Positions 8,770 to 47,834 of a DNA stretch of 64,000 nucleotides are shown here, in pieces. The DNA is from a virus. A program made the translations under genes and the position numbers. The stretch lies in IMG/VR virus record IMGVR_UViG_3300045919_000305, positions 1 through 64,000 of that record; one strand, 5' to 3'. The notes below the pieces were generated by a model that had not been told where the DNA came from, ran no database searches, and saw only the letters and a list, made by a program, of their open reading frames with translations. Positions within the stretch are counted from its first letter, which is position 1. Each line of letters starts with the position of its first letter.

Positions 8770-8963
8770 ATTTCGCAACCTACGCGGATATGATATCGGC
8801 TTTACTAGCCGGTAAAACGATAGTGAATACGAACAGCGAGTATCCTGACTACCTAAAGCTCGTTAATGGTGAAGTGTACGGTAAGACGCCAGCATTATTT
8901 TCTGACGATATTTGGCGCAAATACCCTGAACCGAATACTTATTTTTGCTGGAGAATAGCATGA
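8766..8963 (+). CDS. hypothetical protein
   Basis: ATGA-coupled on both sides. Confidence 0.5.
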   Translation: MNFATYADMISALLAGKTIVNTNSEYPDYLKLVNGEVYGKTPALFSDDIWRKYPEPNTYFCWRIA

Positions 8964-9286
8964 AGCCGCTTAAAATTTATATAGGCTATGATTCTGAACT
9001 CGGTTCTGAAGAAGCCGCTGTTTTAATCTTCGCCCACAATTCAAAAGAAGCCAGGAAGCTCGGCTGGGAAGAAATGAAGCAGCTACACGGCACCGCTTGG
9101 ACAGACATGGCGGTACTGGTATTGCGTCGGAACACAGTAGCTTTGTCTCAAAATGCGGATCCAGTAAAATTAGCGGCTGGCGAAGCGCACGTTATCGTTC
9201 ACATGGACGTTTGCCCTAAGTGTTACCTGTTTGGGGAAGACGGCATCGATGAAAACGATTTATGCGGGTATTGCGGAGATCGGTAA
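8960..9286 (+). CDS. hypothetical protein with C-terminal CxxC...CxxC
   Basis: ATG 8960 overlaps TGA 8961-8963, GGAG 7 nt upstream; ends ...VCPKCYLFGEDGIDENDLCGYCGDR. Confidence 0.55.
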   Translation: MKPLKIYIGYDSELGSEEAAVLIFAHNSKEARKLGWEEMKQLHGTAWTDMAVLVLRRNTVALSQNADPVKLAAGEAHVIVHMDVCPKCYLFGEDGIDENDLCGYCGDR

Positions 9287-9539
9287 TGGCGGATTCTACT
9301 TGGGATGACCTACGAAAACACGTATGGCATAAAGAAAACCGACTTAGAGCGGGGGGTGCGTTCGTGAGCCGCCCCTTCTCGTGCTTGTTGATCCGGAAGT
9401 GTGGGGAGAACTACTTATGAGCCCTGAAAGTCGATACCATCTTGCAGCCAACGAACCCCCTAAATTCTATGGCTACCCTATCTATATGGTAACAACACGG
9501 GGCTTCGGTATGCGCGTAGTGGAGGATAATTGTGTCTAA
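9286..9539 (+). pseudogene. 84-aa-class ORF split by a frameshift in a G6 run
   Basis: Frame 1 (ATG 9286) stops at 9418-9420. Frame 0 is open from 9348 through the G6 run (9351-9356) to TAA 9537-9539 and reads naturally (PPLLVLVDPEVWGELL...). Confidence 0.4.
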
Positions 9540-9657
9540 AAAATCGCGCGAAACGTTCATGGAATACTTCGTTTATGGTGGTTTATCGGCTATTGGTGTT
9601 CTTCTTTTAATCTGGACAGCCACGTTGATGTGGAAATATTTCTATGTCGCTAACTAA
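9532..9657 (+). CDS. small membrane protein (41 aa)
   Basis: GTG 9532 six nt after GGAGG; one clear hydrophobic helix (YGGLSAIGVLLLIWTATLMW). Confidence 0.4.
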   Translation: MSKKSRETFMEYFVYGGLSAIGVLLLIWTATLMWKYFYVAN

Positions 9658-9877
9658 CCAGATCCTGAACCTGCCGCCGGCTAAATTAACCGAGTTGCAC
9701 AATACATTGATAGAAACGGGCGTAGCTTTTGAGTTGGGTGGCGATCATCGGGAAGTGTTGCGCAGGGCGCGTAATCGCTACCAAACAGGGCTCATGCACC
9801 GGGTCTACACCCGGTTAATCGTAGCTAAAAAAGAAGAAATCGACGCTATGTTGAAGCACTTAGTAAATAGCACTTGA
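9644..9877 (+). CDS. hypothetical protein
   Basis: ORF in operon register; ends just inside the -35 of the next promoter. Confidence 0.5.
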   Translation: MSLTNQILNLPPAKLTELHNTLIETGVAFELGGDHREVLRRARNRYQTGLMHRVYTRLIVAKKEEIDAMLKHLVNST

Positions 9878-9902
9878 CACACTAAACGGAAGCCTGTAAA
9901 AT
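9874..9902 (+). promoter_or_regulatory. sigma70-type promoter
   Basis: TTGACA (9874-9879), 17-nt spacer, TAAAAT (9897-9902); followed by GGAG and ATG 9933. Confidence 0.6.
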
Positions 9903-9932
9903 AGTTCCTGTAGTTTGGTTCTGGAGAAAAAA

Positions 9933-10283
9933 ATGTTGGAAAAAGTAGCGTTATGCGATTGTATAGGTAAGACCTTAAAATATGCCGATCTCGAAGATGA
10001 GTACGGTATCTTCACTTTTACAGATGGTACTTTCACAATTCTCCGCGCTACGGCACCCTACGAAGATGCTTGTGAAATTAACATATGTAACGATTACGAA
10101 GACTACGTGATGGATTGCTATTTCTCCGCTGCTGGAATCGCTTCGGAAGAAGAATTAGCTTTAGCTAGGCAAGAAAGGATTCGCATGGCGGCTGAAACAC
10201 TAGAACGGATGGTAAAGGAAAGAGAGTTAAGGGAATACGAGCGCCTTAAAGCGATATACGAAACTAAGATTCAATCCGAGTAG
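9933..10283 (+). CDS. hypothetical acidic/coiled-coil protein
   Basis: ATG 9933 six nt after GGAG (track start TTG 9915 lacks an RBS). Confidence 0.55.
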   Translation: MLEKVALCDCIGKTLKYADLEDEYGIFTFTDGTFTILRATAPYEDACEINICNDYEDYVMDCYFSAAGIASEEELALARQERIRMAAETLERMVKERELREYERLKAIYETKIQSE

Positions 10284-10513
10284 GGCGTATCCCTAACCCC
10301 GAAGTCAGGCAGAGGTGTGGGGATTGTGAAAAACACTGCCAGTAATCGCCGGTATCCTCTCTTTGAGGCTTCCTTTGCGGGTGAGATTACCGAGTTGTTC
10401 ACGAGACGAACAGCTAATCCTAACTTAGTGTTTTGGCCCTTACTGGTAATAGGGTTTAAAACAGTAAGCGGTTGTGCACGAAGTATAACTCAAACCCGGA
10501 TTGGTTTGCCTGC

Positions 10514-10582
10514 TTACTTTATTTTAGAAAGCCCTCCCGAGTCAACAAATGGGAAGTGGCGGACGAGGGTTTTCTAAAGTAG
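10514..10582 (+). repeat. long hairpin A (conserved outer stem TTACTTTATTTTAGAAA / TTTCTAAAGTAG)
   Basis: Outer arms plus inner stem GCCCTC/GAGGGT; preceded by small hairpin CAAACC-CGGAT-GGTTTG. Confidence 0.7.
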
Positions 10583-10700
10583 CGATGTGGAAAGTAGACA
10601 CATGGCGTATAGAGGGCAATAGGCACACGCGGTCTTACCTTTATTGGCGGTGGATAATCCGGCTGTAGGGACACCCACTAGACCCCGGGTGACGACGGGG

Positions 10701-10777
10701 CTACTTTATTTTAGAAAAAGTTGCGGGACGGCTGCAAGCTATCCATTACTACAGCCCCGCAGCTTTTTCTAAAGTAG
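10701..10777 (+). repeat. long hairpin B (same outer stem, different self-complementary interior)
   Basis: CTACTTTATTTTAGAAAAAGTTGCGGG..GCTG / CAGCCCCGCAGCTTTTTCTAAAGTAG; preceded by small hairpin CCCCG-N8-CGGGG. Confidence 0.7.
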
Positions 10778-10942
10778 TCAAAGAGCTTTTAGCGACGACT
10801 GCACCAGGGGTTTGACGTGCAGGGCTTAGGGTATTGGAAAAGGCTTAATGTGGGCGTACCGGGCTCCCCGACGGTTGGAAACCACAGCGTGTTACCGTTA
10901 ACCTTATAATGGCAAGAATCCTGGCTACTTTACTAAATACCG

Positions 10943-10966
10943 CCGATCTCAAAAGATCGGTTTTTT
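10943..10966 (+). terminator. rho-independent terminator
   Basis: CCGATCT-CAAA-AGATCGG followed by TTTTTT. Confidence 0.7.
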
Positions 10967-11007
10967 AACGACCGCGATCCGTCGGCTTCGGATAGTTTAG
11001 AGGAAAT

Positions 11008-11565
11008 ATGAAAATGAAAAGAATATTATTATCATGCGTTTTGTTACTTGCAAGTATGTCTATATATGCTACACCGGAAACATTAACCTTAAACCCACCA
11101 CTAAACAATAAAATATTTGCAGCTTCTGGCTCAATTGTTGGAACCGGTTTAATAGATTCTTATATATTGGAGTGCCCTTTAGCAACATCAACAGGAATAC
11201 GAATTGTTCCTGCTGTGACACTGCTAGATTTAAATTCTGCATATGTGCCAACAAATTTGTCTGTTTCAGTTTCTGGCTCGCTTGGAAAATTCAGCACAAT
11301 CAGAACTACCGGGTATTCTACGCTAGCATCGGCAGCAGTAACTACTTCCGGAACTGCTATAGTGACTGTTAGCAAAACAGGTGCGGACGTTTTATACTCA
11401 TTAGTGTTTAAATGTAAAACAAACCCAACCGCCGCACAAATTGCAGCAGGAGCTATCGCCGGAACATTGACTGCATTAGAACTAATGCCAGCTAATAACG
11501 GAACCCCAATAGACAAAACAAAAGGCCATGTATTGACTCAATTTAAGCAAGATTCTGCGGAGTAA
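11008..11565 (+). CDS. exported protein (signal peptide), unknown function
   Basis: MKMKRILLSCVLLLASMSIYA/TPE signal peptide; GAGG upstream; beta-rich Thr/Ser/Ala mature part with two Cys. Confidence 0.7.
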   Translation: MKMKRILLSCVLLLASMSIYATPETLTLNPPLNNKIFAASGSIVGTGLIDSYILECPLATSTGIRIVPAVTLLDLNSAYVPTNLSVSVSGSLGKFSTIRTTGYSTLASAAVTTSGTAIVTVSKTGADVLYSLVFKCKTNPTAAQIAAGAIAGTLTALELMPANNGTPIDKTKGHVLTQFKQDSAE

Positions 11566-11570
11566 TAGTA

Positions 11571-13523
11571 ATGAAAAATTTATTATCGTTATTATTATTT
11601 TTATGGGGGTCTGCTTTATTAGCTGCACCTTGTCAAATAACTTTTACACCAAGGTCGCAGTATGGGTATACCCCGCAATATATGTCAGATCAGTTAACCG
11701 CCGCTGGATGGACTGTTCTAGGTGTTAGTGCCCCAATATTAAATGGCACTGTTGAGTACCGTAATGTAACCGCTACACGTTCAGACTTTACTTACACCTA
11801 TAGTGGCGTTACTTATAACATGTGCCAATTGCTTAATCGTTGGGATATAGCCCCGGCAAGCGAAAGACAGGCATTAGATGACGCAATAGGAACTTACCTA
11901 AACTTTACGATGCCGATAGGAGTTACAGTTGATAGAGTTAGTTATGATTTGGGATCTGATGGTGCTGAATCGCAAAATTATGTAGCTTATGCGGATTTTA
12001 TCAATAATGAAAGTAATGAGTGGGTCACTAATCCAGCAAAATTCGGATATACGCTTAAGGATTATCATAGTAATAATGGTCTTGCTGCATCAGCTACAGA
12101 AACATTGACTTACATTGATACGTCTGACGCGCATACCGTTGACTATCCATTTAGTATTTTCGGTCATTTGTTGATACCAACAGCCCTTGACCCAGCTACT
12201 CTTGATTTTTTCAGAAATTTTCTTCCAAGTGCAACTCATGCGAGTCAAATGATCGCATTAAGTTTACAGGTCGAAGGCTTAAAGATTTATAATAAAGCCG
12301 TAAGATATGACTACGGTAATACGCTTACTTCTATGGGTGAAAGTGTTGATGCCTCACGAGTAAAGCCTGCCGTTATGGTATTGGGGTTTTATCCTAAAGG
12401 TGATGCTGATACCCAAGCAGCAATTAACATTAAGGAAAATAAACTTAATGCTTCCCAGGTTGTCGTGGTTGAACCCGCAAGGAATCAGATACTTAAAACT
12501 TATGCAGGTGGAAGTAAGTGTGTTATAGGTAATGTTTATATACCGCCAAAAGATTTAATAGTGCATAAAACTCATGCTGCTTGTTTCACACAAGCTGAAT
12601 ACTTTGCGTCTAATGCTAATGCAATTCCTTACGTAGATTATTGGCCTATAACTCAAGCTTATATAGACGAGCTTAACAATGGTGATTATTTTGCCCATGC
12701 TGGAGGCGACAATCCAAAGTCTTTAACGGTGGGTTTTATATCTCCTTGGGATGGCACACTAGGAAACTATCCTGATCCAAGAGTTGACTTTGTATGTAAC
12801 TTTGGTTCTTTTTCTGCATCTTCATCAAGTCTTTGCGCTGGAGCAGTAGGTGCACTGGCAACGGTTATAGTTAAAGAGAATCCTAGCTGGACAGCCCAAT
12901 GTGTAATTGATGCGTTTATTGGAGGTACTAAGCAATTCAACAGGACATCTTCAAAAAGTGCTGGCGTTGGGTATGGAGTTTTTAACGCGGATGCTGTTAT
13001 TAACTACTCAGCTCAAAGGAAGAATGATTGCGGTACTAACGGTCTAATTGATGCAGACGGCGTTGAGCTTGGCGCTTTTGCCGAAGCTTACCCACAAAAC
13101 GCTACGAGCTTATACGGGATACCTAATCAGCAATTGTTTGGGGCTTACCCTTATAACTTCGCCAGCACATTAAGCAATAGCTACAACCAAGCTATATCTA
13201 ACGGTTGTACAGGACAGGGAAGCGTTGCTAAAGTTTGGAGACGTAGACTGGACCCCATAACCAATACTTATATTTATGAAGTTGGAACAGTTAGCGATGT
13301 AATTACTTGGCCAGGTAGTTATATTGAATGTGACGACTCGCCACAAGGAAGGCCAACAGCTAGGCATTTTAGTATCTTTTATAATAAATCCCAAATAACG
13401 GATGCTAACGGGTGTAACATTCGATATAAATCGCTATATGGGCAATGCAGTAATTCGGTTAACGTAAGAATGGGCGACCCTTCTTACCGTGCTACAAATT
13501 TTTATCACGGAAAATTGCTTTAA
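11571..13523 (+). CDS. exported 650-aa protein, unknown function
   Basis: MKNLLSLLLFLWGSALLA/AP signal peptide; starts 6 nt after the previous stop; many Cys; AT-rich codon usage. Confidence 0.7.
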   Translation: MKNLLSLLLFLWGSALLAAPCQITFTPRSQYGYTPQYMSDQLTAAGWTVLGVSAPILNGTVEYRNVTATRSDFTYTYSGVTYNMCQLLNRWDIAPASERQALDDAIGTYLNFTMPIGVTVDRVSYDLGSDGAESQNYVAYADFINNESNEWVTNPAKFGYTLKDYHSNNGLAASATETLTYIDTSDAHTVDYPFSIFGHLLIPTALDPATLDFFRNFLPSATHASQMIALSLQVEGLKIYNKAVRYDYGNTLTSMGESVDASRVKPAVMVLGFYPKGDADTQAAINIKENKLNASQVVVVEPARNQILKTYAGGSKCVIGNVYIPPKDLIVHKTHAACFTQAEYFASNANAIPYVDYWPITQAYIDELNNGDYFAHAGGDNPKSLTVGFISPWDGTLGNYPDPRVDFVCNFGSFSASSSSLCAGAVGALATVIVKENPSWTAQCVIDAFIGGTKQFNRTSSKSAGVGYGVFNADAVINYSAQRKNDCGTNGLIDADGVELGAFAEAYPQNATSLYGIPNQQLFGAYPYNFASTLSNSYNQAISNGCTGQGSVAKVWRRRLDPITNTYIYEVGTVSDVITWPGSYIECDDSPQGRPTARHFSIFYNKSQITDANGCNIRYKSLYGQCSNSVNVRMGDPSYRATNFYHGKLL

Positions 13524-14211: not shown

Positions 14212-16035
14212 ATGCGAAAAATAAGCCTAACCCTTTTATGCCTGTCTTTAGCTGTATTATTACAGCCCGAAGCCAAGGCGACTGTTTACGGCCCGGTAGA
14301 GAACTTCGATGTTACCAATACCACAGGGCAAGATGCGCACGGCTTCGAAATCGAAGCGAGAGACGTACATAAATCCGATATTTCATCAATCTTTGGCGAT
14401 CCCAGCCGCTTTGGTTTGGATCAAGTAGAGCGTTACGATGCGCCTATCGTTACTGATTTTACTGATGCTACCGGATTCGGGGTGCGTATACGCTATGCTG
14501 CGGCATTTAACGGTGTTTGGTCTGCTACTACCCCAAGTGGGCAGTTACCCTATAGCCCGGCGGATTCCTGCTGGAAATACGGTGATCCTAACTACAACAC
14601 GACAACTTATCCCTGTGATCATTTTGGAGTAAGCTTTAACGTTGCTCCAACGACCGTAAAGTATTCATGGTTGGTTGAGCAGACGCCGGGTGCATTAACT
14701 CCGACTGGTGTTTACGTGCCAAGTCCAGTATTCAATATTGTGACCCCAGCACAGGTAATACCCCCCGCTGTTGTAGGCAATCCCCCCATCGTTATAGCAC
14801 CTCCGGTAATACAAGTTCAATTACCCGCACCGGAATTACCCCCAGCGGCACAGTTCGGAACCCCTTTCTGGGTTAAGGTAAAATCTACTTGCCTGAATAA
14901 TAACATCGGTGTAGAAGCCCTCGTGAAAGACGGTAAAGATATGGCCGTTATGGAGACTGAGACAGAATGGCAGATATTTCAAGAAGATGTGGGCAACCCA
15001 GCCTCAAAATTCCTGGATATGACGGCTACCAAGCTGCACAATTGCCCGGCTGGTGAAGCCTACACAATTGACGTATTCGAATACGCGGGCTTACTGACGG
15101 CTGAAGGTCAAATAGACCTACAAGGTGCTTCTGATACCCCCGTAATAGATCCACCCACGTTAGGTAAATGGCTGGGCGCAAACAATGTCGGTATTAACTA
15201 TGCAGGCGGTGTGCCTGATGTATTGGGCGGAGTAGTTGCACCGTTACCAACACCAGCTCCTACGCCTTCTCCGACACCGGCACCTGTGGCTCAAGCGTGT
15301 TCAGGCACTGACGAAGTAATCACTAGTACCGCCGGCGCAGCGAGAAACAGCAACATCGCTTTATTTGACGGAACCCTTATCGCGGCTCCTTATATTGGCA
15401 CGGCCAGTAACTTAGTCGCTATTCCAGCGGCGGGAGTAGCCTACGCTTTTAACGGGGTAGCCTTTGGTACGTTCAACGCCGGTGATTTGATCACTTACAG
15501 TGGGTCTTATGGCGCGGCATTGAATGCTAACGGAACGCCAATGTGGTGTATCCCTGCCGCCGTAACTGTGACAGCAGCTATCGCCCCAACGCCTGTGCCA
15601 ACGCCTGTGCCAACGCCTGTGCCAACGCCTGTGCCAACGCCTGTGCCAACACCTGTGCCAACACCTGTGCCAACACCTGTGCCAACACCTGTGCCAACAC
15701 CTGTGCCAACACCTGTGCCAACGCCTGTGCCAACACCTGTGCCAACACCTGTGCCAACACCTGTGCCAACGCCTGTGCCAACGCCTGTGCCAACACCAGT
15801 AGGTTGTGCGCTAGGAACAGGTAAAGTATCCTCACCGAATGCTAAAGCAACAGCAGTTGCAGGTAATGTGATTACCGTTGCCGGTAAGCAATACACAGTG
15901 GCTGATTGTGCGGTTATTAACTACAAAGGCCATGCGAAGTCAATCGCTGTAGGGTTTAGTGTTGAAGTGAAAGCCGGTTATGCTCTAAACGGCGTCACTT
16001 ATGCTACTAAGCTAACCGTTGATGACGGCAAGTAA
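14212..16035 (+). CDS. exported modular protein with PT-rich linkers
   Basis: [25 protein letters not shown] signal peptide. About 330-aa N-domain, [15 protein letters not shown] linker, about 100-aa two-Cys domain, (PTPV)18, about 78-aa two-Cys C-domain. Confidence 0.75.
15586..15801 (+). repeat. 18 tandem copies of a 12-bp unit CCAAC[G/A]CCTGTG (PTPV)
   Basis: Counted directly; copies differ only at the Thr wobble base (G5 A6 G1 A3 G2) plus a degenerate last copy CCAACACCAGTA. Confidence 0.95.
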
Positions 16036-16255: not shown

Positions 16256-19200
16256 CTAATCCCCATTCTCGTCCCGCAATCGGTTCTGCTCATAGAGGTA
16301 CGTTAATCTAGGATTCACAGCGTACCCTCTAATCCCTTTTTCCTGCTTGTTTTTAGCCGTTCTAACCACCGATTTGTGGATGCTTTCATAAGTAACCGGC
16401 CAAGTTGGGTGTTTAGCCTGCCAACGCGCCAACTCTTCTTGAGGGACGGGTTCGCCGTTTGCGATCGCTTTTTGAACTTTGTTAACCAGTTTTTGCCGCG
16501 CATCGGAGATCGCAGCTTCCGCGGCTTTGTTATACCCGCGTTCAGCGTACAGCACTTCCATATTAGAGCTGCCCAATCCGATCGCTTGGAATAGCACTTC
16601 CATAGCGGAGGCGTCTTTCAGTTGCTCACCGTTCATGCTTTCGTAACCGTGTTGCGCTAAGCGGATAGCTTTCAGCCCGTCGCCCAAAGCTTTAGGCGTT
16701 GCACTCTCTACGCCGCGTAGTACTTCACCATCGGCCATCATTTTTGCACCGTCAGCGATCTTTTTAATCATACCGCCGAATGGTCCAGCCACTTGAGATA
16801 AGTATTCGGTAGCTGCGTCTTTGCCTTCCAGATCCTTCAAAGGCTCTTGGAAGAAGACATTGCTCAAGTTCATACGGGATGCCAAGTTAACAGGCGTTAA
16901 AGCGTTGCCCAGACCCTTGATCATCGCGGTAGCAAACGTTTCACCGCCCAACTCAGTTAACCCTACCCGTAATTCTTTTTCAATGTCCCACGGCTCATCA
17001 TCGTCGGATGCTGCATTGCCAATTACATTGATTACCATCGAGATTGCGCCCATCAACGGCATACCGAATAAACCAGCCGCCGCACCTTGCATGGCGAAGA
17101 GCGCCATTAACGATCTAGCCGCATTTTGTGCAGTTTCTTTGGCTTCCGCTTTGGCCGCTTTCTCTTCGTCCGTGGTTTCTGGCATTTTTTTCCAGCCTGA
17201 GAACGCATCTGCAGCGGTTTTCCCCCACAGATAAAGCATCGCCTGTGGGTACTTTTTATACTGCATGACCACACCGGCTACCGGTCCTCGGAAGATCCGA
17301 GCCGCGTTTTCAGTCGAGTAGTCCCCGTGTGCATCGTTGTTGACTTTACGAGCGTAATCCATAGCCGCTAAATGGTTGTTGATATCGCCTTGTAACGCTA
17401 AATCATAAGCCGCCATCAGGGTAATTTCACGGTTCATACGCTCGCCGTGGTGGAACATCCAGCCCATTTTTTTGTTAAATTCTTGCAATCGTCCGCCGTA
17501 ATCTTCCCCCTCACGGCCAATACCTAACACATCGAAGAAGTTGGTTCGAGAAACGTCCCCTTCTTCTTTGAAGTTTCGCAGGGCAGATAGCCTACTCCCT
17601 ATTCTATCCATTTCCGCCCGATCGCCGTTATGCGCTTGCAGGTAATCCAACCGCTGCCGCATGATAGTAGAGATCGACGAGTTGCCGTCTTCGTCACGGT
17701 AAAGGTACTCACCATTCGCGTCTTTTTTGTTAATTCCGATAACTGCCTTTAGGAATTCGTTACGTGTTTTGCCAAAAGCCTTAGCCGTTTCCTTAACGCC
17801 GTATTTTCCAGCAGTAATGGGCATGGCTACCACAGGGGTTTGGAATAAGTTCACTAAACCACTGGATAAACCAAAACCCATTGTCATAACGAAATCGAAC
17901 TGACGAATAGCCGAAGCGATTTGGTCCATACCCGTACTCGGCGTGTTTACCATCGCGTTGTAGGTTTTGGTTAATTCCTGCAAAACGTTGGCCGCTTTTT
18001 CCCGATCTTTAGGGGGGATTAATTTAGCCGCTTCGAGTGCTTGCGTGTTTTTGTCCTCAACTCGGTGCAGCGACTCCAGCACGTCCTCTGACGCACCGAA
18101 CTTGCGGCGTAGTTTGATAGCTTCTTCGTAGACTTGTTTCTCTTTCAGGTCGTCGGTTTCCGCCAATAGAGTTTCTAAGGCGTCCTCTTCGTTCAGTTCG
18201 TCCCAATTTGCTTGCAGCATGGCCGCAGCTTTAGTTTCGGCATCAACCTGATCGCGTAAAGAAGTTCTCGAAGCGATATCCAGCGCGCGTCTACCTTCGA
18301 CCAAGACTTGTGCCATTTCACGGCCCTCGGTCATGTTAGCAAGCTGAGAAGCGCCGTGGTGGATGGTATTGGCGAAAGCCCGCATCGCATCTTCATCGAA
18401 CCCTAATGTACCTTTACGGTGCATGGAGTTGTGACGCACGGATATGTCCGGCAAAGTAGCCAGATACATTTGGTGGATCTCGTCTTGCAGCGCTTTGGAA
18501 ATATCCGGAGCGATATCGGCACCCGCTATTTTAGAGTGGATATCCTTCAAGAAGTTATCAGATACCGCGTCACCTATTTGCGAGTTCTGGATATCACTCA
18601 GTGAAGTGCCTTGATCGTTTTCGTTGACCGTGCCGCCGTCTTTGATAAAAGCTTTTAACGCTCTGTCCCTAGCGGGAGTCGAACTGTAGGTTAGAAACCA
18701 CTTCTCGCCTTGCGCATCTTTGCCGTAAAACCAATGATCTCCATACCGTTTTAATGGCGCGTAATACCAGGACAACGATTGCGATTCGAACTTAGACCGA
18801 AGCTGAGCGATCAACGCCGCGCCGGTTTGAGCATCCAAGATAGACTCTTCGATTCGGTTTTCTAAAGCCTCTAGGCGCTGGTTGAATATCTCAGTGTGAA
18901 GCGCATAAGTACCCGCGTAAATGTCTTTAACCGAAGGGTGTTGGGCAAATAGCGTTTCGTAAGCCGGTCTTAAATGTGCGTAAGCCTGACGGCGTAAAAT
19001 GTTTGAATCTTTCCAGCCGTTGCTTGCGCGGATTTGTGTTTGCTTTTGATCAATCTCGCGTAATTTTGCCAAAAACTGCGCCGCCTTATCTTGCGAAGCA
19101 AACGTCGCTGAGTTCTTGTCAGAGAATAACGCGCCGGCGCTTTCTGCAGCCGCTTTGATGTAGCTTCGGCTCTGACCGTTAAATTCGGTCATTGAATAGG

Positions 19201-22200
19201 CTTTAAACCCGCTTGGGGTCGGCTCTACACCTAACCAATCTTTCGACACGTTGATATCTCGCAAGGTAGATTGCTGCATCAAGCGACCAGTTTCTTTGCG
19301 GGCAGGTACCGGCAAGGCTTTCCATTTGATCGAGGTCAACTGGTTTGCTTTGTGTAAATAAGGATCCACCATCGCGCGACGGCGTTGCATCGCTTCTTCG
19401 TAAGCTTTCAGCCCCGGCAGATATTTTTTAGCAATTTCTATAATCTGCCGAACAGACAGCACGGCCAATTTTTCTTTAGCCACAGTGTTTGAGAAGTCTT
19501 CAAAAGCGTTCAGCATTTCGACTGTAGTGGCTCGTGCTGCACCTTCTGGTAACTGCTCCACCGCTTCCCGGATACTGGTAGGGGCGCTAAACATCGGCAT
19601 CCCTTCTGAAAGTATTTTGGCTTTCATTTCGGGCGTGATGATCAGGGCAGGTTGGGACTTAAAACCTTTCTCTTCCAGTTCATATATTGATGAGCGCGCA
19701 TCAGCAGCGGCATCGTAATTCGGAAAATTACCAGATTTTCGGGTTTCCGTTTTCTTATCCGCTAAGTAGTAATCCCCAACCCCGTTAGATGTAGGCCCTT
19801 CCGCCAGAATGGTTATTTCTGGCCCCATACTTCCGGTAGATTTCACCCAACTGGATTTTATCTTCCCACCCATCTTCCGCGCAATCTCATTCGCCGCTTG
19901 GGTAATGAGTGCGGGTTTACCTTGAGCGTTTAAGCCGTTTTCATCGCCATACATAGCTTGCGTCCAATCACCGCCGACTTTTAGATCAAGGCCCGATAAC
20001 TCTTTGGCCACTGGTGAAACTTCACCCTCTGCTTCAAAACCTACCGATTCTTCAGTGCTCTGGCCCTCGTCGTTAAGTATCTTATCCGCTACCCCTTTGC
20101 CCAGGTACTCTTCGAGTTGTTCGGGTGTTTGATTAAATCGGGCGTCTCTATCGTTATCGTTTTTATCAAAGATAACGATATCAAATTTACCATCACGATT
20201 CACATACCGGATTCGATTAATGTGTTGGGATAAATCGTACCGATCCGCTTGTTGATCACCCGTTGTCCACGCTACCGAATCACTGCCGTTATCAATCGCT
20301 TGGCTGATGGCCTTTTTCATTAACAAAGAGATATAGGCGTTCGTTGCCTTGTTATTTGAATCCGTGACGAAGGGTGCGGGAGGAACACCGAACTCGGGCA
20401 ACCGTTCCAACCTTCGTATCTCATCTTGGATAACGACCCTTTCGGTTTGCAGCGTATCGAATTCCTCGTCCACATCATCGGGAAACCTGAGCGCCAATTC
20501 GCGTACACGCTTGTGTAATTCTTGATTTCTATTTTTCAACTCGACGAGCTTCAGCTCTTCGGTATTCGTTAAGGGGCGATTAAACCCCGATTTCCGTCCC
20601 GCTTGACTTCGTTGCGACTGCACTTCTTCAAGGAACAAGACTTTATTACCGTTCGCATCAATTCGGGTATTGTGTCGAATCCAGCCAATTTGCTTTCCTT
20701 GCCCAACATCACCAAAATGCGTTGTATCGTGTTGGTTATGGGGTTCTGTAGTCGGAATTGTAACGACGAGTTCTCGGTAATCTGTGCCGCCGGGTAGGGT
20801 AAGTTGCGCGGAATTGTGCTTGGCTTCTGTAAATTCCGCATTTGTAGATACGTTGTGAAATTCATCGATAGCATCGAGCCATTTTTTCGCTTGCCCTTGA
20901 AACTTTTCTGGGAGGTCATACGACTCTAAATCCCCGTCCTCCAAAGCGTAATACAGGTCATCATCAAAATATTCTTTACCGTGTATCTGTAACGGTAGAT
21001 TTTCTTTTCTAATTCCGTCAAAAAGTTCTTTCGCATACCCATCGGCTTCCGCTTTGAGCGCTTGCTTCCGCTCTTCTGGAGAAATCCCACCCAACATCAC
21101 ATCCTCAACCTTCACGCCATTAGCGTCCAGAAATTCACTAACTTGTGCCCGTGTAACTTTACCAGAAAGCGAATCTAACCAATCGGTAATCCCCGACCAG
21201 TAAATTTCATCTTTCTTTACGTCAAATCTAGGCGCGTTGGCTACCAGCCAGACTTTAACTTGTTGCGCATTGCCGAATACCTTTTCCGGTGCCTTTTCAA
21301 TCGCTTTGCTTAAAGCAGAATAGAAGCGCGGTGCGGGTTCTGAAGTTTGCGCACTAAACATCGGTGCTGCTTCAATATCCGCAGCACTAAAAGGGCTAGA
21401 TTGGATTCCACGACCTGTTCGCCCCTCGGTTTCTTCCGCAGTCCGTTGACCTTCCCAAAGCGGCACCCCACCCCAACGTTTAGTATTGAGTGCAGGCACA
21501 ATTGAAACTACAGAATAAACTTGGCCGCCGTTTAAAGCGTCTTTCTGCTTGCTGACAATTAAAGCTTGTTGTAGCCTTGAAGATCGGAACACATAGTGCC
21601 CTCGGTCTTGGAATATTTGATCAAAGCCTTTAGCAATTGAGGAAACGTGACGTGCGTAATTTTCCGCAACTTCGCCGGTGTAGCCCGGAACCATCCGGCG
21701 GTCGCCTTCCCGTACCGCGTTATCGTGAATGTGCGTAATGCCAAAACCTTTATGCTCGGCAGTCGCTTTACCGACGCGTAATTTAATCGGTAAACGCTCA
21801 ACGCCTTTAGCTACGGCACTAGCCGGAGTCATGGCGATAGCACCGTTCATATTGCCTTCGTAAGCTGGTGTTTCAGGAACGATGAAATCTTCAACCGATT
21901 TACGGATACCGTGCAGACGACGGGACTCCATGACTTCACTATTAAATTCGCGTGGGGCGTTTAAATCCGTTTTTATTGCGGATTGCAGACTCGCTTTTAG
22001 CAAATCGTGTAAATCGTTTTCCGTCATGGTACCCGCGATAAAGCTGCGGCCTAATCCATGAGCGACCAAGAATGATTTGATTTGGGATAATAGGCGTTTA
22101 AACCAACCCGCTTGCGGTGCGTATTCACCTAATTTAGCGATAACTTCCGCGATAAACGGCTCGCTACCTTCGCCCATGTGCGCATAAGGTTTGTTGCCAT

Positions 22201-25200
22201 TGGCGTCAGTGCCATTCAGCACTTTATTCCATGTCAGATTAGCCAGCGATCCGGGGATCTTGGCTTGATTAGTGATTTGGTTTTGCAGCGCTTGGTAGGC
22301 TTTCGTGCCCAGCATCCGACGAAGGTTGAAATGCTCCCCGATCTCGTGCAGAACTACAGCATTCAATCGTTTTTTGGGGATCGCGTTAATATCAAGAAAC
22401 GCCTTCCCCTTTAAATAAACTGCTTCTGCAGCCGAATATTTTTCCGGATTGACTGGCCAGCCTTCTTTGCCTTGGGTGAAATTCAGCACGCCGCTTTCTA
22501 CTAAACGGGCTAACCCTGGGCCGTACGCTTCGCCTAAATGCGCGATCGCTTCTTCAGGTGAGTTAAAACGGTCGTTTAGTTGTTGCTGAACGTCCGGTTC
22601 TTTAAGTAACGCTTCCGCTATTTTGGATTGCGTTGTCTCAACAGGCCCTGCGTTAGTAGTTGTTGCTCCAGCTCCGCCTCTTTTTCGTCGTGGTGCCTTT
22701 TCAGCTCTAGGAGGCGCTTGCGGTGCTGCCCCATTATCCTCGCTGGTTGGTCGGCTAACTCCGACATCCCCAGCCGTTCCAGTCTCGTTTCGTCTGACAT
22801 ACTCTTCGCCTCGTTTACCAGCGTCAAGTTCCCGGCTGGATCGTTCAAAAATAGTGGATAGCTCTGTTCCGGGTATTATAGGGCTTTGGCCTAGGTAAAG
22901 GCCAACTCCATTTGGCTTTTCAGCTCCAGGCTTAGATTTCGGGTGCGCTATTTGGTCTAAACCCGTTTGTTTAGTGTATTCCGCGACGCGTTGCTTAGCA
23001 TTCTGCATCGCTTGGTTTATAGACGCATCTGACCCACCAGTGATCACCGCACTCAGCTCATCGCCGCCATGCCGTATTAATACCGCGTTGCTACCGGCTT
23101 TCTGCATTTCGTCGGCAAAAATGTCACTAATGTCGCGGAATACCGGATTCGCTATCGCGTGGTTGTTGTTAAAATGCGAGTTCAAACCACCTAAATTAGC
23201 AATATCCGCATCGACAAAGTGAGCCGTTTCGCCGGTATCCGCAACGTGTTTCATCACCGCTTCAATGGTGGGTTCCTTATCGTGCGGTAAATGGAAACCC
23301 GTAACAGCGTCCATGTCTTCTTTAGGAACGATTTTTTCTAGTGCCGCTTCATCCGTAAGCCCCGCATCACGGGCAAGCTGCCGGCGTTCCGCTACCCGCT
23401 TTTCGCTAGGTGACATGAAATCCGTCTGCCTGCGATCTTGAGGGGAGCGTTCGGTTATTTCTTGCCCTTCTTGCGATGGTTGTTCTTGCGGGGTTGCGTT
23501 CTGGCTTTGGTCATTTAGTTGCTCTGGTTGTAGTGAGGATGTTTCGGATGGTGCTTGTTCAATATTCCCGTTCCCTTGTCCGCTTGGTTCCACTCCGCTG
23601 CTGTCGATTGTGGGATTTCCACCCGCTTTGCGAATTCCGGGTTGTGCGCTGCCGCCGCCATCAGACGGGCTTGGGCTGGACTCTTGGAGGGCGTTTTGGT
23701 TCTCCGTTAATTGCGCTCGGCGTTCACGCTCGGCGGTAATTAGTTGTTTCTGTTCGCTAGTTGCGGCCCGCTGACGGAATAAATTAGTTAGCGCAGCATC
23801 GTCCAAAGTCTGTATGGTAGTTTGGAAAGCTTCAGATTGCGGTTGGGTAATTCCGGCATCTAGGGCGGCGTTGGCTGCCCTGTTCAAAACACCATCGGGT
23901 GCAGCGGCTAACTGCTCTTTAATGGGGGCAGCGGCAGCCTCTGACGCCGCTTGTATTTGCTCTTCAGGCGTCGGTGGTGTTCTGGAAGCGATGTGCATTT
24001 CCATTGCGTCCAACACGGTTTGGGCCGAATCCCCAGGTTTAGTCGGGATTTCCAATTTCGCGGCAGCATCGGCTAATCGTTTAGTAACGACTTGACCTAA
24101 TCCAACAGAACTATACGCTTTCTTATAGTTATCTATAAAGTTTTGACTTTCATCAAGAACGGCTTGCTCGTGCTCGTCCGGAGGCTGAAAACCCTGTTCT
24201 TCTTGGGCGCCCGGTAATACTTCCGCCGCCGGTGTTTCTGATTCTTGCGGCATATAATCCGCCAACATCGTATCGATATCCGCAGGTTCTGCAGGCAAGT
24301 TACGTTGCTGCTCAATGATCGCTTGTTCTTCAGGGGTTGTTTCAGGCGTTACGGGTTGCGCATGGGTTAAAGCGCCTGTCGGTGCGCCCATACCAAAACC
24401 AGCTACCGCGCCAAGGGCTGCGGCATTGCCTACCCCTTCCATCGCATCTTTACCCAAAGCGACGTTAGAAGCCGCCTGTTCTTGGCCGGATTGCGCAGTT
24501 TCTTGTGCTGCTTCGACTCCGCCCCCTTCCAAAGCTCGGCGTGCGGCGTTCTTAGTAGTCGGTGCAATGGCGTTTTGGCCGCCGATTAGCGCGGTGTTTA
24601 CGTCCCCGACGCCTAATTTATTGGCTATTTTTCCGAAACCGCCCGTAATTGCGCCCGTTGCGGCACCGCTTCCCGCTAAAATTGCGGTCTGCTCCGGGGT
24701 TAATAAACCGTTTTCCGTTTGTTGCCGCACTTGTTCGACGTTTTGCCCTGCCGTTACGCCACCTTCGCCAATTGCGCCAGCGGCTAGGGGACTCAATGCG
24801 GGCGCCGCTTTCATCACGCCTTTAGCAATGCCCGCACCGCCTAACATACTCGGTGCGGATTCTAAAATCGTGTGGCCAGCAACGGAGGGGTTTTCTGCGA
24901 CGGCTTTTAGTGTAGGGACAAAACCCTCAGCATTTTGAACGTTTTCAAAAGCTTGTTTCTGTGCGGGGGAATAATTTTCGGAAAGAATATCTTTAGCGCG
25001 TTTAAAATCGACCCCATTTTCTTGCAACGCTTTACCAACACGTCCGCCGGTAGGGATATCCGCTAAACCGACTGCGGTTTCTGGAACTCCAATAGCGCCT
25101 TTGAGTGCGGTAATCCCAACGTCTTTGGCACGATCCCCGAAGGATGTTTCAGGGGCAGGTTGCTCGGGTTTCGGTAAGTAATCCGCCAAAATCGTATCAA

Positions 25201-25270
25201 CATCAGGGGCTTGATCTTTTGGCATATAATCAGCCAACATAGAATCGATATCTGGTGCGGTATCCGCCAT
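16256..25270 (-). CDS. 3004-aa polyvalent-type virion/ejection protein
   Basis: Single uninterrupted 9-kb ORF ending the late operon. Gly/Ala-rich hydrophobic N-region, GGDEF-like module (aa about 652-800), PLKRYG (PLxRFG-type) motif at nt 18740-18757, hydrophobic segments near the C-terminus. Confidence 0.7.
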   Translation of the reverse strand: MADTAPDIDSMLADYMPKDQAPDVDTILADYLPKPEQPAPETSFGDRAKDVGITALKGAIGVPETAVGLADIPTGGRVGKALQENGVDFKRAKDILSENYSPAQKQAFENVQNAEGFVPTLKAVAENPSVAGHTILESAPSMLGGAGIAKGVMKAAPALSPLAAGAIGEGGVTAGQNVEQVRQQTENGLLTPEQTAILAGSGAATGAITGGFGKIANKLGVGDVNTALIGGQNAIAPTTKNAARRALEGGGVEAAQETAQSGQEQAASNVALGKDAMEGVGNAAALGAVAGFGMGAPTGALTHAQPVTPETTPEEQAIIEQQRNLPAEPADIDTMLADYMPQESETPAAEVLPGAQEEQGFQPPDEHEQAVLDESQNFIDNYKKAYSSVGLGQVVTKRLADAAAKLEIPTKPGDSAQTVLDAMEMHIASRTPPTPEEQIQAASEAAAAPIKEQLAAAPDGVLNRAANAALDAGITQPQSEAFQTTIQTLDDAALTNLFRQRAATSEQKQLITAERERRAQLTENQNALQESSPSPSDGGGSAQPGIRKAGGNPTIDSSGVEPSGQGNGNIEQAPSETSSLQPEQLNDQSQNATPQEQPSQEGQEITERSPQDRRQTDFMSPSEKRVAERRQLARDAGLTDEAALEKIVPKEDMDAVTGFHLPHDKEPTIEAVMKHVADTGETAHFVDADIANLGGLNSHFNNNHAIANPVFRDISDIFADEMQKAGSNAVLIRHGGDELSAVITGGSDASINQAMQNAKQRVAEYTKQTGLDQIAHPKSKPGAEKPNGVGLYLGQSPIIPGTELSTIFERSSRELDAGKRGEEYVRRNETGTAGDVGVSRPTSEDNGAAPQAPPRAEKAPRRKRGGAGATTTNAGPVETTQSKIAEALLKEPDVQQQLNDRFNSPEEAIAHLGEAYGPGLARLVESGVLNFTQGKEGWPVNPEKYSAAEAVYLKGKAFLDINAIPKKRLNAVVLHEIGEHFNLRRMLGTKAYQALQNQITNQAKIPGSLANLTWNKVLNGTDANGNKPYAHMGEGSEPFIAEVIAKLGEYAPQAGWFKRLLSQIKSFLVAHGLGRSFIAGTMTENDLHDLLKASLQSAIKTDLNAPREFNSEVMESRRLHGIRKSVEDFIVPETPAYEGNMNGAIAMTPASAVAKGVERLPIKLRVGKATAEHKGFGITHIHDNAVREGDRRMVPGYTGEVAENYARHVSSIAKGFDQIFQDRGHYVFRSSRLQQALIVSKQKDALNGGQVYSVVSIVPALNTKRWGGVPLWEGQRTAEETEGRTGRGIQSSPFSAADIEAAPMFSAQTSEPAPRFYSALSKAIEKAPEKVFGNAQQVKVWLVANAPRFDVKKDEIYWSGITDWLDSLSGKVTRAQVSEFLDANGVKVEDVMLGGISPEERKQALKAEADGYAKELFDGIRKENLPLQIHGKEYFDDDLYYALEDGDLESYDLPEKFQGQAKKWLDAIDEFHNVSTNAEFTEAKHNSAQLTLPGGTDYRELVVTIPTTEPHNQHDTTHFGDVGQGKQIGWIRHNTRIDANGNKVLFLEEVQSQRSQAGRKSGFNRPLTNTEELKLVELKNRNQELHKRVRELALRFPDDVDEEFDTLQTERVVIQDEIRRLERLPEFGVPPAPFVTDSNNKATNAYISLLMKKAISQAIDNGSDSVAWTTGDQQADRYDLSQHINRIRYVNRDGKFDIVIFDKNDNDRDARFNQTPEQLEEYLGKGVADKILNDEGQSTEESVGFEAEGEVSPVAKELSGLDLKVGGDWTQAMYGDENGLNAQGKPALITQAANEIARKMGGKIKSSWVKSTGSMGPEITILAEGPTSNGVGDYYLADKKTETRKSGNFPNYDAAADARSSIYELEEKGFKSQPALIITPEMKAKILSEGMPMFSAPTSIREAVEQLPEGAARATTVEMLNAFEDFSNTVAKEKLAVLSVRQIIEIAKKYLPGLKAYEEAMQRRRAMVDPYLHKANQLTSIKWKALPVPARKETGRLMQQSTLRDINVSKDWLGVEPTPSGFKAYSMTEFNGQSRSYIKAAAESAGALFSDKNSATFASQDKAAQFLAKLREIDQKQTQIRASNGWKDSNILRRQAYAHLRPAYETLFAQHPSVKDIYAGTYALHTEIFNQRLEALENRIEESILDAQTGAALIAQLRSKFESQSLSWYYAPLKRYGDHWFYGKDAQGEKWFLTYSSTPARDRALKAFIKDGGTVNENDQGTSLSDIQNSQIGDAVSDNFLKDIHSKIAGADIAPDISKALQDEIHQMYLATLPDISVRHNSMHRKGTLGFDEDAMRAFANTIHHGASQLANMTEGREMAQVLVEGRRALDIASRTSLRDQVDAETKAAAMLQANWDELNEEDALETLLAETDDLKEKQVYEEAIKLRRKFGASEDVLESLHRVEDKNTQALEAAKLIPPKDREKAANVLQELTKTYNAMVNTPSTGMDQIASAIRQFDFVMTMGFGLSSGLVNLFQTPVVAMPITAGKYGVKETAKAFGKTRNEFLKAVIGINKKDANGEYLYRDEDGNSSISTIMRQRLDYLQAHNGDRAEMDRIGSRLSALRNFKEEGDVSRTNFFDVLGIGREGEDYGGRLQEFNKKMGWMFHHGERMNREITLMAAYDLALQGDINNHLAAMDYARKVNNDAHGDYSTENAARIFRGPVAGVVMQYKKYPQAMLYLWGKTAADAFSGWKKMPETTDEEKAAKAEAKETAQNAARSLMALFAMQGAAAGLFGMPLMGAISMVINVIGNAASDDDEPWDIEKELRVGLTELGGETFATAMIKGLGNALTPVNLASRMNLSNVFFQEPLKDLEGKDAATEYLSQVAGPFGGMIKKIADGAKMMADGEVLRGVESATPKALGDGLKAIRLAQHGYESMNGEQLKDASAMEVLFQAIGLGSSNMEVLYAERGYNKAAEAAISDARQKLVNKVQKAIANGEPVPQEELARWQAKHPTWPVTYESIHKSVVRTAKNKQEKGIRGYAVNPRLTYLYEQNRLRDENGD

Positions 25271-47575: not shown

Positions 47576-47599
47576 AAAAATCCCCTTGGGTAAGTGTTA

Positions 47600-47607
47600 A
47601 TTATAGC
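47600..47607 (-). promoter_or_regulatory. GCTATAAT box upstream of the lysis cassette
   Basis: Minus strand CTAAAGTAGGCTATAAT-N8-ACCCAAGGGGATTTTTATG. Confidence 0.35.
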
Positions 47608-47612
47608 CTACT

Positions 47613-47834
47613 TTAGTAATTGTCAAACCGTCCGGATAATAAATCATGCTTAAATTGCTCTACCATGAGTAACAGTTCTGCTTTATTTGAAGTACTTGAG
47701 GCAACCCAATCGTCCCCGTCCGGGCAAGAACCTAAGACTAAAACGCAATTCAATTCTCCCTTAGCCCCTTCTAAGACGCTATCTGGGTCTATGTCGTTTC
47801 GTGTGTAACCTGGGAATTGAACGATTTCAGCCAT
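47613..47834 (-). CDS. hypothetical protein (73 aa)
   Basis: ORF in the late operon. Confidence 0.5.
   Translation of the reverse strand: MAEIVQFPGYTRNDIDPDSVLEGAKGELNCVLVLGSCPDGDDWVASSTSNKAELLLMVEQFKHDLLSGRFDNY

Follow-up and report, generated by a model that had tools for sequence, protein, structure and literature searches.

A Modular, Structured Plus-Strand RNA in a Metagenomic Phage Genome with a Predicted Proteo-phage-1-Type 5' Domain

The DNA analysed here, referred to as the window, is a stretch of 64,000 nucleotides (nt) from a virus (IMG/VR record IMGVR_UViG_3300045919_000305, positions 1 to 64,000). Comparison with related phage loci shows that positions 10281-10967 specify a plus-strand, highly structured and modular non-coding RNA, which on comparative sequence evidence appears to be a divergent, extended member of the Proteo-phage-1 family (Rfam RF03044). 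An initial annotation of the window had listed a large ornate phage non-coding RNA among several possibilities for this region, and the covariation of the plus-strand RNA indicates that this was the right class. Our best guess at its function is a stand-alone scaffold RNA with swappable cargo, the main rival being a cis-acting leader. The explanation as a whole, which joins the identity of the RNA, its transcription, its architecture and a mode of action in trans, is given a probability of about one half.

Relatives and Conserved Structure of the Plus-Strand RNA

The gap 10284-10966 lies between orf116, a small open reading frame (ORF) with its stop at 10283, and the first exported-protein gene (ATG at 11008). 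The sole sizeable ORF in the gap, of 86 amino acids (aa; 10317-10577), has no Pfam match, and its frame is broken in the relatives by indels of 1-3 nt (alignment A2). For these reasons a coding ORF was rejected and the gap is considered to be non-coding, in agreement with the initial annotation.

Six metagenomic phage loci carrying related RNAs (L103, L171, L176, L179, L254, and L256) were found via neighbouring proteins: L103 via the helicase, L171 via a 77-aa protein, L254 and L256 via a 108-aa protein, and L179 and L176 (together with L177) via a 130-aa protein whose gene comes after the RNA of L103. In all six, a common promoter is followed by a long ORF-free stretch. The layout of L254 is that of the window (promoter, RNA, terminator, conserved 40-nt spacer, and exported-protein gene), but with one hairpin and no orf116. 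Searches with parts of the RNA itself added little. An exact scan of viral contigs with the 16-mer of the hairpin arm returned 101 matches, single-copy among the 80 listed and taken as chance without inspection. Exact scans of viral contigs with blocks of the 3' and 5' domains, as well as a degenerate 5'-domain scan, retrieved only the L103 contig, and a hairpin-A pattern had no match in them. The 3'-domain pattern had three matches in metagenome contigs, judged to be chance, and scans of genome contigs gave none apart from two chance matches in coding DNA.

Over all modelled helices, the helix cells comprised 445 Watson-Crick, 59 G-U, 3 A-C, and 10 other combinations. The covariation alignments reached 95-98% pairing with 7-26 compensatory pairs each (slid controls, 7 at most). 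Since G-U cells outnumber A-C cells by 59 to 3, the folded molecule is taken to be the plus-strand RNA and not duplex DNA, a cruciform, or a minus-strand transcript. The selection on RNA structure and the conservation of pairing in related phages that the initial annotation had anticipated are both borne out by this asymmetry and by strong covariation of the helices across the six relatives. Neither the equal strand symmetry nor the fixed recognition sequence of a duplex operator or cruciform was observed, as the minus-strand folds are weaker and the arms covary; the protein-bound cruciform or duplex site once suggested is likewise disfavoured by the G-U/A-C asymmetry.

The 5' Domain and the Proteo-phage-1 Family

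RF03044 (Proteo-phage-1) has been presented as a candidate small RNA of unknown function (Weinberg et al. 2017, PMC5737381); nothing on Proteo-phage-1 or RF03044 was found in the main texts of the papers searched. At the gathering threshold, Rfam had no match in the whole window. At a permissive threshold, RF03044 was the only relevant match of the region: it was matched over its full length at 10275-10344 with 21.5 bits and an E-value of 0.29, short of the gathering score of 42. The match in the relative L171 (35.8 bits, E 0.0024) was likewise sub-threshold.

A pattern derived from the Rfam consensus retrieved 69 viral loci. Thirteen of them were scored with Rfam, and all 13 reached 65-81 bits on RF03044. 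The covariance model R1, built solely from the window and five relatives (152 positions), matched 45 of the pattern-derived loci over all 152 positions, with 34-58 bits and E-values from 1e-6 to 1e-12. These matches cover 70 nt past the Rfam model, that is, the long stem P3 and a hairpin with the loop ACGUAAC (ACGAGAC in the window, where it is the loop of hairpin P4). No match to R1 was found in 67 loci from phages with a related helicase.

The helices of the domain covary within the window lineage and across both groups. In the alignment of six sequences, 96.5% of the cells were paired and 16 of the 33 pairs were compensatory (slid controls, at most 3); in the joint alignment of 34 distinct sequences, the corresponding values were 96.4% and 26 of 33. 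The pseudoknot is outside model R1, yet it was 100% paired in 33 distinct sequences from both groups, with compensatory changes at three of its five pairs (exchanges CG/GC, CG/UA, and GC/AU). Its partners read GGCAG/CUGCC in the window, GGUGG/CCACC in L171, and GGUAG/CUACC in L179 and L256. The Proteo-phage-1 architecture, with P1, P2, the loop-to-tail pseudoknot, and the A-rich strand GAAAAACA, was thus found in full with covarying helices; the A-rich tail of the window domain reads GAAAAACAC. The full-length matches of R1 and the covariation of the pseudoknot together argue for placing the window 5' domain in the Proteo-phage-1 family as a divergent member, and for regarding the Rfam motif as the first half of a domain of ~150 nt.

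The window RNA shares with Proteo-phage-1 the same two 5' hairpins, the loop-to-tail pseudoknot, the strand GAAAAACA, and the location in phages 3' of a promoter and 5' of ORFs. It differs in the G+C content of the host group (45-50% for the window lineage vs. 63%), in the length of the conserved domain (~150 nt with P3 and an ACGNRAC hairpin, whereas the Rfam model ends at 82 nt), and in the variable long hairpin and 3' module downstream, which are absent from the Rfam description. The orphan 82-nt motif may accordingly be viewed as the front half of a pseudoknotted domain of ~150 nt heading a modular RNA of 0.4-0.9 kb, the downstream hairpins and domains of which are exchanged among phages that are otherwise alike. 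The class would span from Pseudomonas/Stenotrophomonas-type phages to an unrelated lineage of 45-50% G+C.

Several further Proteo-phage-1 regions were observed. A second subgroup (L186 and L185), in which the Rfam motif continues as CGCGCACCCUG...GGGUGGCGCGAGAC, was not detected with model R1; the RNA of L186 closes with an intrinsic terminator just 5' of the ribosome-binding site (RBS), and that of L185 has tRNA-Gly and tRNA-Met after it. In the cultured Pseudomonas phage PS-1 (NC_029066.1), positions 8883-9293 hold a bona fide Proteo-phage-1 RNA region under the annotation 'hypothetical protein', which makes this phage a possible experimental model for the family. The window has one copy of the 5' domain. 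L103 contains a second, partial copy at 15820-15929 (tail, P3, and a P4-like hairpin with the loop ACAAGAC; 61.5 bits), 540 nt 3' of the first RNA and directly after a tRNA-like element. In L176 the Proteo-phage-1 5' domain is entirely missing.

Hairpins A and B and the Optional Modules

The two long hairpins of the initial annotation were recovered at the same positions (Table 1), and their near-identical arms correspond to two exact repeats, a direct one of 16 nt (TACTTTATTTTAGAAA; 10515, 10702) and one of 13 nt (TTTTCTAAAGTAG; 10570, 10765). The inverted-repeat arms measure 17 nt in hairpin A and 21 nt in hairpin B, and the latter forms ~25 bp of almost perfect duplex. Compared with shuffled sequences, hairpin A folds at -26.1 kcal/mol (z -3.0) on the plus strand and -19.1 kcal/mol (z -1.5) on the minus strand, and hairpin B at -36.8 (z -6.8) and -33.2 kcal/mol (z -4.7), respectively; the whole region has a z of -3.5. 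A small hairpin indeed precedes each big one, and the pairing of the outer stem in two registers, also described before, is caused by a 5-nt insertion in the 5' arm. In L254 and L256 the stem is perfect and uninterrupted, (C)UACUUUAGAAA / UUUCUAAAGUA(G).

A-type modules occur in the window, L171 (1602-1676), L256 (1480-1543), and L176 (3590-3650), with a variant in L254. The apical motif of hairpin A is kept in the first four, while the stems differ. B-type modules occur in the window, L103 (15043-15115), and L179 (2010-2078), and of the nine innermost pairs of their lower stem, six change on both sides and none is broken. The lower stem of the hairpins in seven sequences had 98.3% of its cells paired, with 7 of 17 pairs compensatory. 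The hairpins had been interpreted as paralogues diverged by compensatory change. Their self-complementary interiors are unrelated in sequence, as stated, and each has its own orthologues, so paralogy was rejected; compensation is demonstrated by the comparison of orthologues instead. A and B are regarded as two different modules of one variable position, arranged here in tandem, and the likeness of their arms would reflect that these are part of the constant frame.

Modules X and Y precede hairpins A and B, respectively. The optional module X is homologous to L254 5951-6004 and, by eye, to L179 ~1200-1250, and is absent from L171 and L256. The first part of module Y (10583-10603) is 100% identical to L179 2076-2096, located there 3' of a B-type hairpin, and the rest was found in the window only.

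Other interpretations of these elements were tried and rejected. Kissing of the A and B loops could involve 6 bp, yet A and B seldom co-occur in the relatives. The sequence GCUACUUUAC resembles the rrn boxA UGCUCUUUAACAA, but it covaries with its partner and is replaced by UGCAUC in the PS-1 type. A CsrA sponge was rejected since GGA is not enriched, as judged by eye, and a retron or diversity-generating retroelement since there is no reverse transcriptase.

The 3' Domain and the Three Complementary Elements

A third copy of the arm sequence, GGCTACTTTA, is predicted to pair with the 3' flank of hairpin B and to close a multi-branch 3' domain of ~160 nt. The closing helix of 10 bp covaries (U-A to C-G, and C-G/U-G/G-C); its partners in L171 are UAAAGCAGGC/GCCUGCUUUA, the equivalent helix in L176 is formed by AAAGUUUACUCA/UGAGUAAGCUUU, and L179 too has one, of other sequence. 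Using RNAalifold with a four-sequence alignment, 50 pairs were predicted for the domain, 16 of them compensatory. The initial annotation had derived a separate RNA of about 50 nt from this third copy, a TATAAT at 10905-10910, and the terminator. The copy and the terminator are present, and the separate RNA was not supported: the TATAAT is unconserved as a promoter (CTTTAAC in L103, CAATAAC in L254) and falls within one of the covarying helices that make up the 3' domain.

The hairpin and the 3' domain are framed by three elements. In the window lineage, (i) CUACUUUA(G) and (ii) CUAAAGUAG enclose the hairpin interior, and the 3' domain lies between (ii) and (iii) GGCUACUUUAC. In the PS-1-type loci, (i) UGCAUCGG is separated from (ii) CCGAUGCA by an interior of 50-196 nt, and an optional 3' module (0-160 nt) comes before (iii) CUGCAUC, after which a conserved leader and RBS follow. 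The arrangement covaries in the window, L103, L171, L254, L176, and the PS-1-type loci; L171, for instance, has CUGCUUUA three times and UAAAGCAG once, and the PS-1 type has UGCAUC and GAUGCA. The PS-1-type interiors are very unlike between otherwise near-identical phages, and some hold tRNA-like T-arm sequences or true tRNAs. Because the hairpin of L171 and L256 directly follows the ACGAGAC hairpin, it is regarded as the positional equivalent of the PS-1-type variable hairpin.

The sequence CTAAAGTAG noted earlier near the holin gene was found on the minus strand at 47608-47616, not at 47606-47614, within the spacer of a consensus promoter. The proposed link to the holin promoter was not sustained, as the 8-mer TAAAGTAG recurs at five other unrelated places in the window, among them 179, 40854, 47166, and 55272, and AAAGTAGCC at 18453 and 43018, which corresponds to chance level. 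The promoter itself (47595-47625, minus strand; TTGACA-N15-TATAAT) is near-consensus and lies 5' of a small minus-strand gene; its spacer holds CTAAAGTAGGC, which matches the hairpin-A 3' flank of L256 exactly, and this was judged to be a coincidence.

Transcription Signals

The promoter of the unit is located directly 3' of the gene for the 77-aa protein, and an equivalent promoter at the equivalent place was found in all six relatives. The orf116 inserted after it has no Pfam or PHROG match and was detected in the window and L256 only, among the relatives compared; in L103, L179, and L254 the RNA directly follows the promoter without it. The 3' end is marked by a G+C-rich stem-loop and a U run in the direction of transcription, as in Rho-independent terminators. 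The terminator found at the equivalent place in L254 differs in sequence, and L254 shares the conserved spacer sequence AACGACCGCGATCCGTCGG. The promoter scan revealed no promoter-like site between the terminator and the ATG at 11008; the downstream cassette would therefore have to rely on terminator read-through. An anti-terminator for 10942-10967 was rejected, the sole candidate (10643-10650) falling in the non-conserved module Y. The features are listed in Table 1.

Table 1. Features of the RNA region and its flanks in the window.
Feature	Position	Strand	Description
Sigma-70-type promoter	9874-9902	+	TTGACA-N17-TAAAAT; 11/12 consensus matches; top site within 9500-11700
orf116	9933-10283	+	Small ORF inserted between promoter and RNA; RBS and ATG
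5' domain (predicted extended Proteo-phage-1)	10281-10413	+	P1 10281-10295; P2 10297-10322; P3 10342-10390; P4 10395-10413
5'-domain pseudoknot	10308-10312 with 10336-10340	+	P2 loop pairs with tail
Optional module X	10414-10508	+	Ends in small hairpin 10491-10508
Hairpin A	10514-10582	+	Covarying lower stem and conserved apical motif CCCGAGU..ACAAAUGGGA.GUG.C..AC
Module Y	10583-10700	+	Small hairpin GAUGUG-GAAAGUAGA-CACAU first, small hairpin 10683-10700 last
Hairpin B	10701-10777	+	Covarying lower stem and near-invariant apical 38 nt GGGACGGCUGCAAGCUAUCCAUUACUACAGCCCC
3' domain, multi-branch	10770-10932	+	Closed by (ii) UAAAGUAGUC 10770-10779 with (iii) GGCUACUUUA 10923-10932
Intrinsic terminator ending the RNA	10942-10967	+	8-bp stem and 4-nt loop (10942-10961), TTTTTT
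Conserved 40-nt spacer	10968-11007	+	Followed by first exported-protein gene (ATG 11008); contains its RBS

Proposed Mode of Action and Alternative Explanations

The unit is probably transcribed from the promoter at 9874-9902 to position 10967. The host sigma-70 RNA polymerase would start at this promoter, pass orf116, and mostly stop at the terminator (10942-10967), yielding an RNA of ~1.06 kb, the last ~690 nt of which would be the folded RNA. We infer that the ~150-nt 5' domain could serve as a constant handle, with a possible part in stability or partner binding, and the modules as swappable cargo that exposes conserved loops in trans to a partner, either protein or RNA, and acts as a decoy, a sponge, or a ribonucleoprotein scaffold. 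The short linker repeats (CUACUUUA) may be the joints for module exchange between phages. The terminator would make the RNA discrete and abundant, and only read-through transcripts would express the downstream exported-protein cassette. A stand-alone RNA is favoured because two lineages end the RNA with unlike terminators at the equivalent place, because the stems drift and the sequences of the apical loops and junction strands do not vary, and because the cargo turns over quickly and tRNA and tRNA-like genes, which are found in or beside the RNA regions of relatives, share the locus. The resulting architecture (handle, variable hairpin, three-part complementary switch or joint, and terminator) is testable, and the apical motifs of A and B are candidate binding sites.

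A more specific version of this scheme, which we regard as doubtful, is a 'cassette array': a constant handle of ~150 nt with fast-exchanged RNA cargo forming an accessory or counter-defence hotspot, in which A and B would be decoys for host factors. Short linker repeats would border the cargo (A, B, tRNA-like units, and others) and pair with a single complementary element. Should the cargo idea hold, the locus would represent at the RNA level what accessory-gene hotspots are at the protein level.

Several observations weigh against the stand-alone scaffold RNA and its assignment. The window match to RF03044 is under the Rfam gathering score. Close homologues number only 6-7, and the models of the 3' domain and the hairpins are built on 3-7 sequences. 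The fitting of alignment A5 to the model inflates the pairing of the modelled helices and leaves the pseudoknot unaffected. No complement of at least 11 nt to the apical loops was found elsewhere in the window, and an antisense target there was rejected. Moreover, the loci L103, L171, L176, and L179 and those of the PS-1 type have no terminator, and the RNA runs into an RBS and ORF, an arrangement no less consistent with a leader acting in cis than with an RNA acting in trans.

Such a leader, in which alternative pairings of (i), (ii), and (iii) or a processed hairpin RNA would set the level of transcription or translation entering the downstream accessory genes, is possible, and we consider it unlikely rather than remote. 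It agrees with the constant location of the RNA right after the promoter and before ORFs with no promoter between, with the concerted change of all copies of (i)-(iii) in L171 and the PS-1 type, and with the complementarity between (ii) and (iii), which reaches 15/16 nt in L103. The spacing is also suggestive: in L103 and L171, 7 nt separate the end of (iii) from the Shine-Dalgarno sequence, and in the window and L254, 9 nt separate it from the terminator stem. That terminator, however, is a good one that does not overlap (iii) in either L254 or the window, and a conserved anti-terminator was not found; the first RNA region of L179 lacks the hairpin and (i)-(iii), and the large conserved 5' and 3' domains would be idle in a simple antisense scheme. 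The leader-encoded immunity RNAs c4 of phages P1 and P7 and CI of satellite P4 pair with repeats flanking them on the same transcript. As in those systems, the element is part of the untranslated leader that follows a constitutive promoter, and (ii) is complementary to the upstream (i) and the downstream (iii), the latter by the RBS, with copies that covary between phages. This c4-type layout is best read as an analogy and not as family membership: the Rfam C4 antisense model was unmatched at E≤10 in 10100-11100, (ii) is here the base of a long hairpin and not a loop, the 5' and 3' domains have no counterpart, and there is no sign of a temperate phage in the window.

Two further models are compatible with the observations. 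By analogy with HK022 put, the 5' domain could be a processive antitermination RNA that binds the polymerase for read-through. A constant domain after the promoter, followed by variable sequence that often has terminators (window, L254, L176 after the tRNA, and L186), and downstream genes without their own promoter are what such an RNA would entail, and both are shared with put as a promoter-proximal folded RNA 5' of terminators. The put RNA consists of two stem-loops of ~70 nt without a pseudoknot, and is unlike the pseudoknotted window RNA in sequence and structure; in addition, L171 has a terminator-like hairpin upstream of the domain, and the window domain is ~370 nt from the start site, behind an ORF. 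Antitermination is consequently held to be improbable. To a similarly low likelihood we assign a processing scaffold, the stems and linkers of which would be sites for RNase III, RNase E, or RNase P that release small RNAs (the apical parts of A and B, and the tRNA-like cargo in relatives). The nearly perfect duplex of ~25 bp in hairpin B, the T-arm-like GGUUCGA(A/G)UCC and CCA in some PS-1-type cargo, and the true tRNAs in the same leaders of L176 and L185 point in this direction, and the linker (A/G)C↓UUU is compatible with the loose preference of RNase E. This evidence is circumstantial and does not exclude the stand-alone RNA, and the conserved 5' pseudoknot domain is left unexplained. Models at the DNA level, in which the repeats are operator half-sites or MITE-like terminal inverted repeats, or the feature is a cruciform or a replication origin, are not compatible with the observations and are very improbable. 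The inverted arms with flanking direct repeats do resemble terminal inverted repeats with a target-site duplication, and modules have clearly been exchanged at repeats. Against this stand the 59 G-U to 3 A-C cells, the covariation of the pseudoknot and multi-branch domains, which is at odds with a fixed protein recognition site, and the lack of dispersal of the motif, with single-copy 16-mer matches (judged chance, uninspected) and no further copies of the 5'-domain or hairpin-A pattern in the viral or genome collections.

The initial annotation had also suggested a check for the large phage-associated RNAs GOLLD, ROOL, and HEARO; none was matched at the gathering threshold in the window or at E≤10 in 10100-11100. 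GOLLD and ROOL resemble the window RNA in being large, ornate, phage-encoded, of unknown function, and often located beside tRNA genes (PMC5737381). They differ in the absence of an Rfam match and in secondary structure, and the window RNA is modular with exchangeable inserts.

Genome Context and Additional Observations

The window is clearly phage DNA. Its plus strand encodes an exonuclease, DNA methylase, SNF2 helicase, DHH phosphoesterase, and TSCPD protein, and the minus strand encodes the portal, large terminase, major head protein, and a 3004-aa protein. The nearest capsid relatives belong to Vibrio phages (43% identity). No similarity at the DNA level to phage records or E. coli genomes was found by blastn, and no tRNA or tmRNA gene was detected in the window by ARAGORN and Rfam. 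The two genes 3' of the terminator (11008-13523) encode signal-peptide-like N-termini and have no family match; they lie in a G+C trough (33-44% vs. 50% in the RNA), which would fit acquired accessory genes. In the 3004-aa ORF (16256-25270, minus strand), the C-terminal region resembles giant DarB-like/antirestriction PHROGs, and the N-terminus has a weak match to the non-catalytic part of an N4-type virion RNA polymerase (E 2e-8). Its product is probably an injected giant protein.

The gene for the 130-aa protein, which has no Pfam match, is absent from the window. Relatives of this protein in L178, L180, and L182 adjoin RNA ligase, a PNKP-type phosphatase/kinase, and tRNA genes, which suggests a role of the family in tRNA or RNA repair. 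A tRNA-like gene immediately follows the 130-aa gene in L171 (2606-2735), L179 (1836-1965), and L103 (~15687-15812). Its acceptor, D, and T arms are normal, ~65 nt take the place of the anticodon loop, and the Rfam tRNA model scored 31-39 bits; ARAGORN made no call. Both a tRNA with an intron and a tRNA mimic are conceivable. In L176 (3267-3340; L177 1786-1859), the promoter is followed by tRNA-Gly(UCC), a terminator, and then the A-type hairpin and a different 3' domain. Extra small elements are located between the promoter or the tRNA-like gene and the RNA in L171 (1297-1439) and L179 (1966-2008). One of them consists of a short hairpin and an intrinsic terminator GCCCUCUGCAUGGAGGGCUCUUUUU, and those of L171 include an additional near-perfect hairpin of 75 nt.

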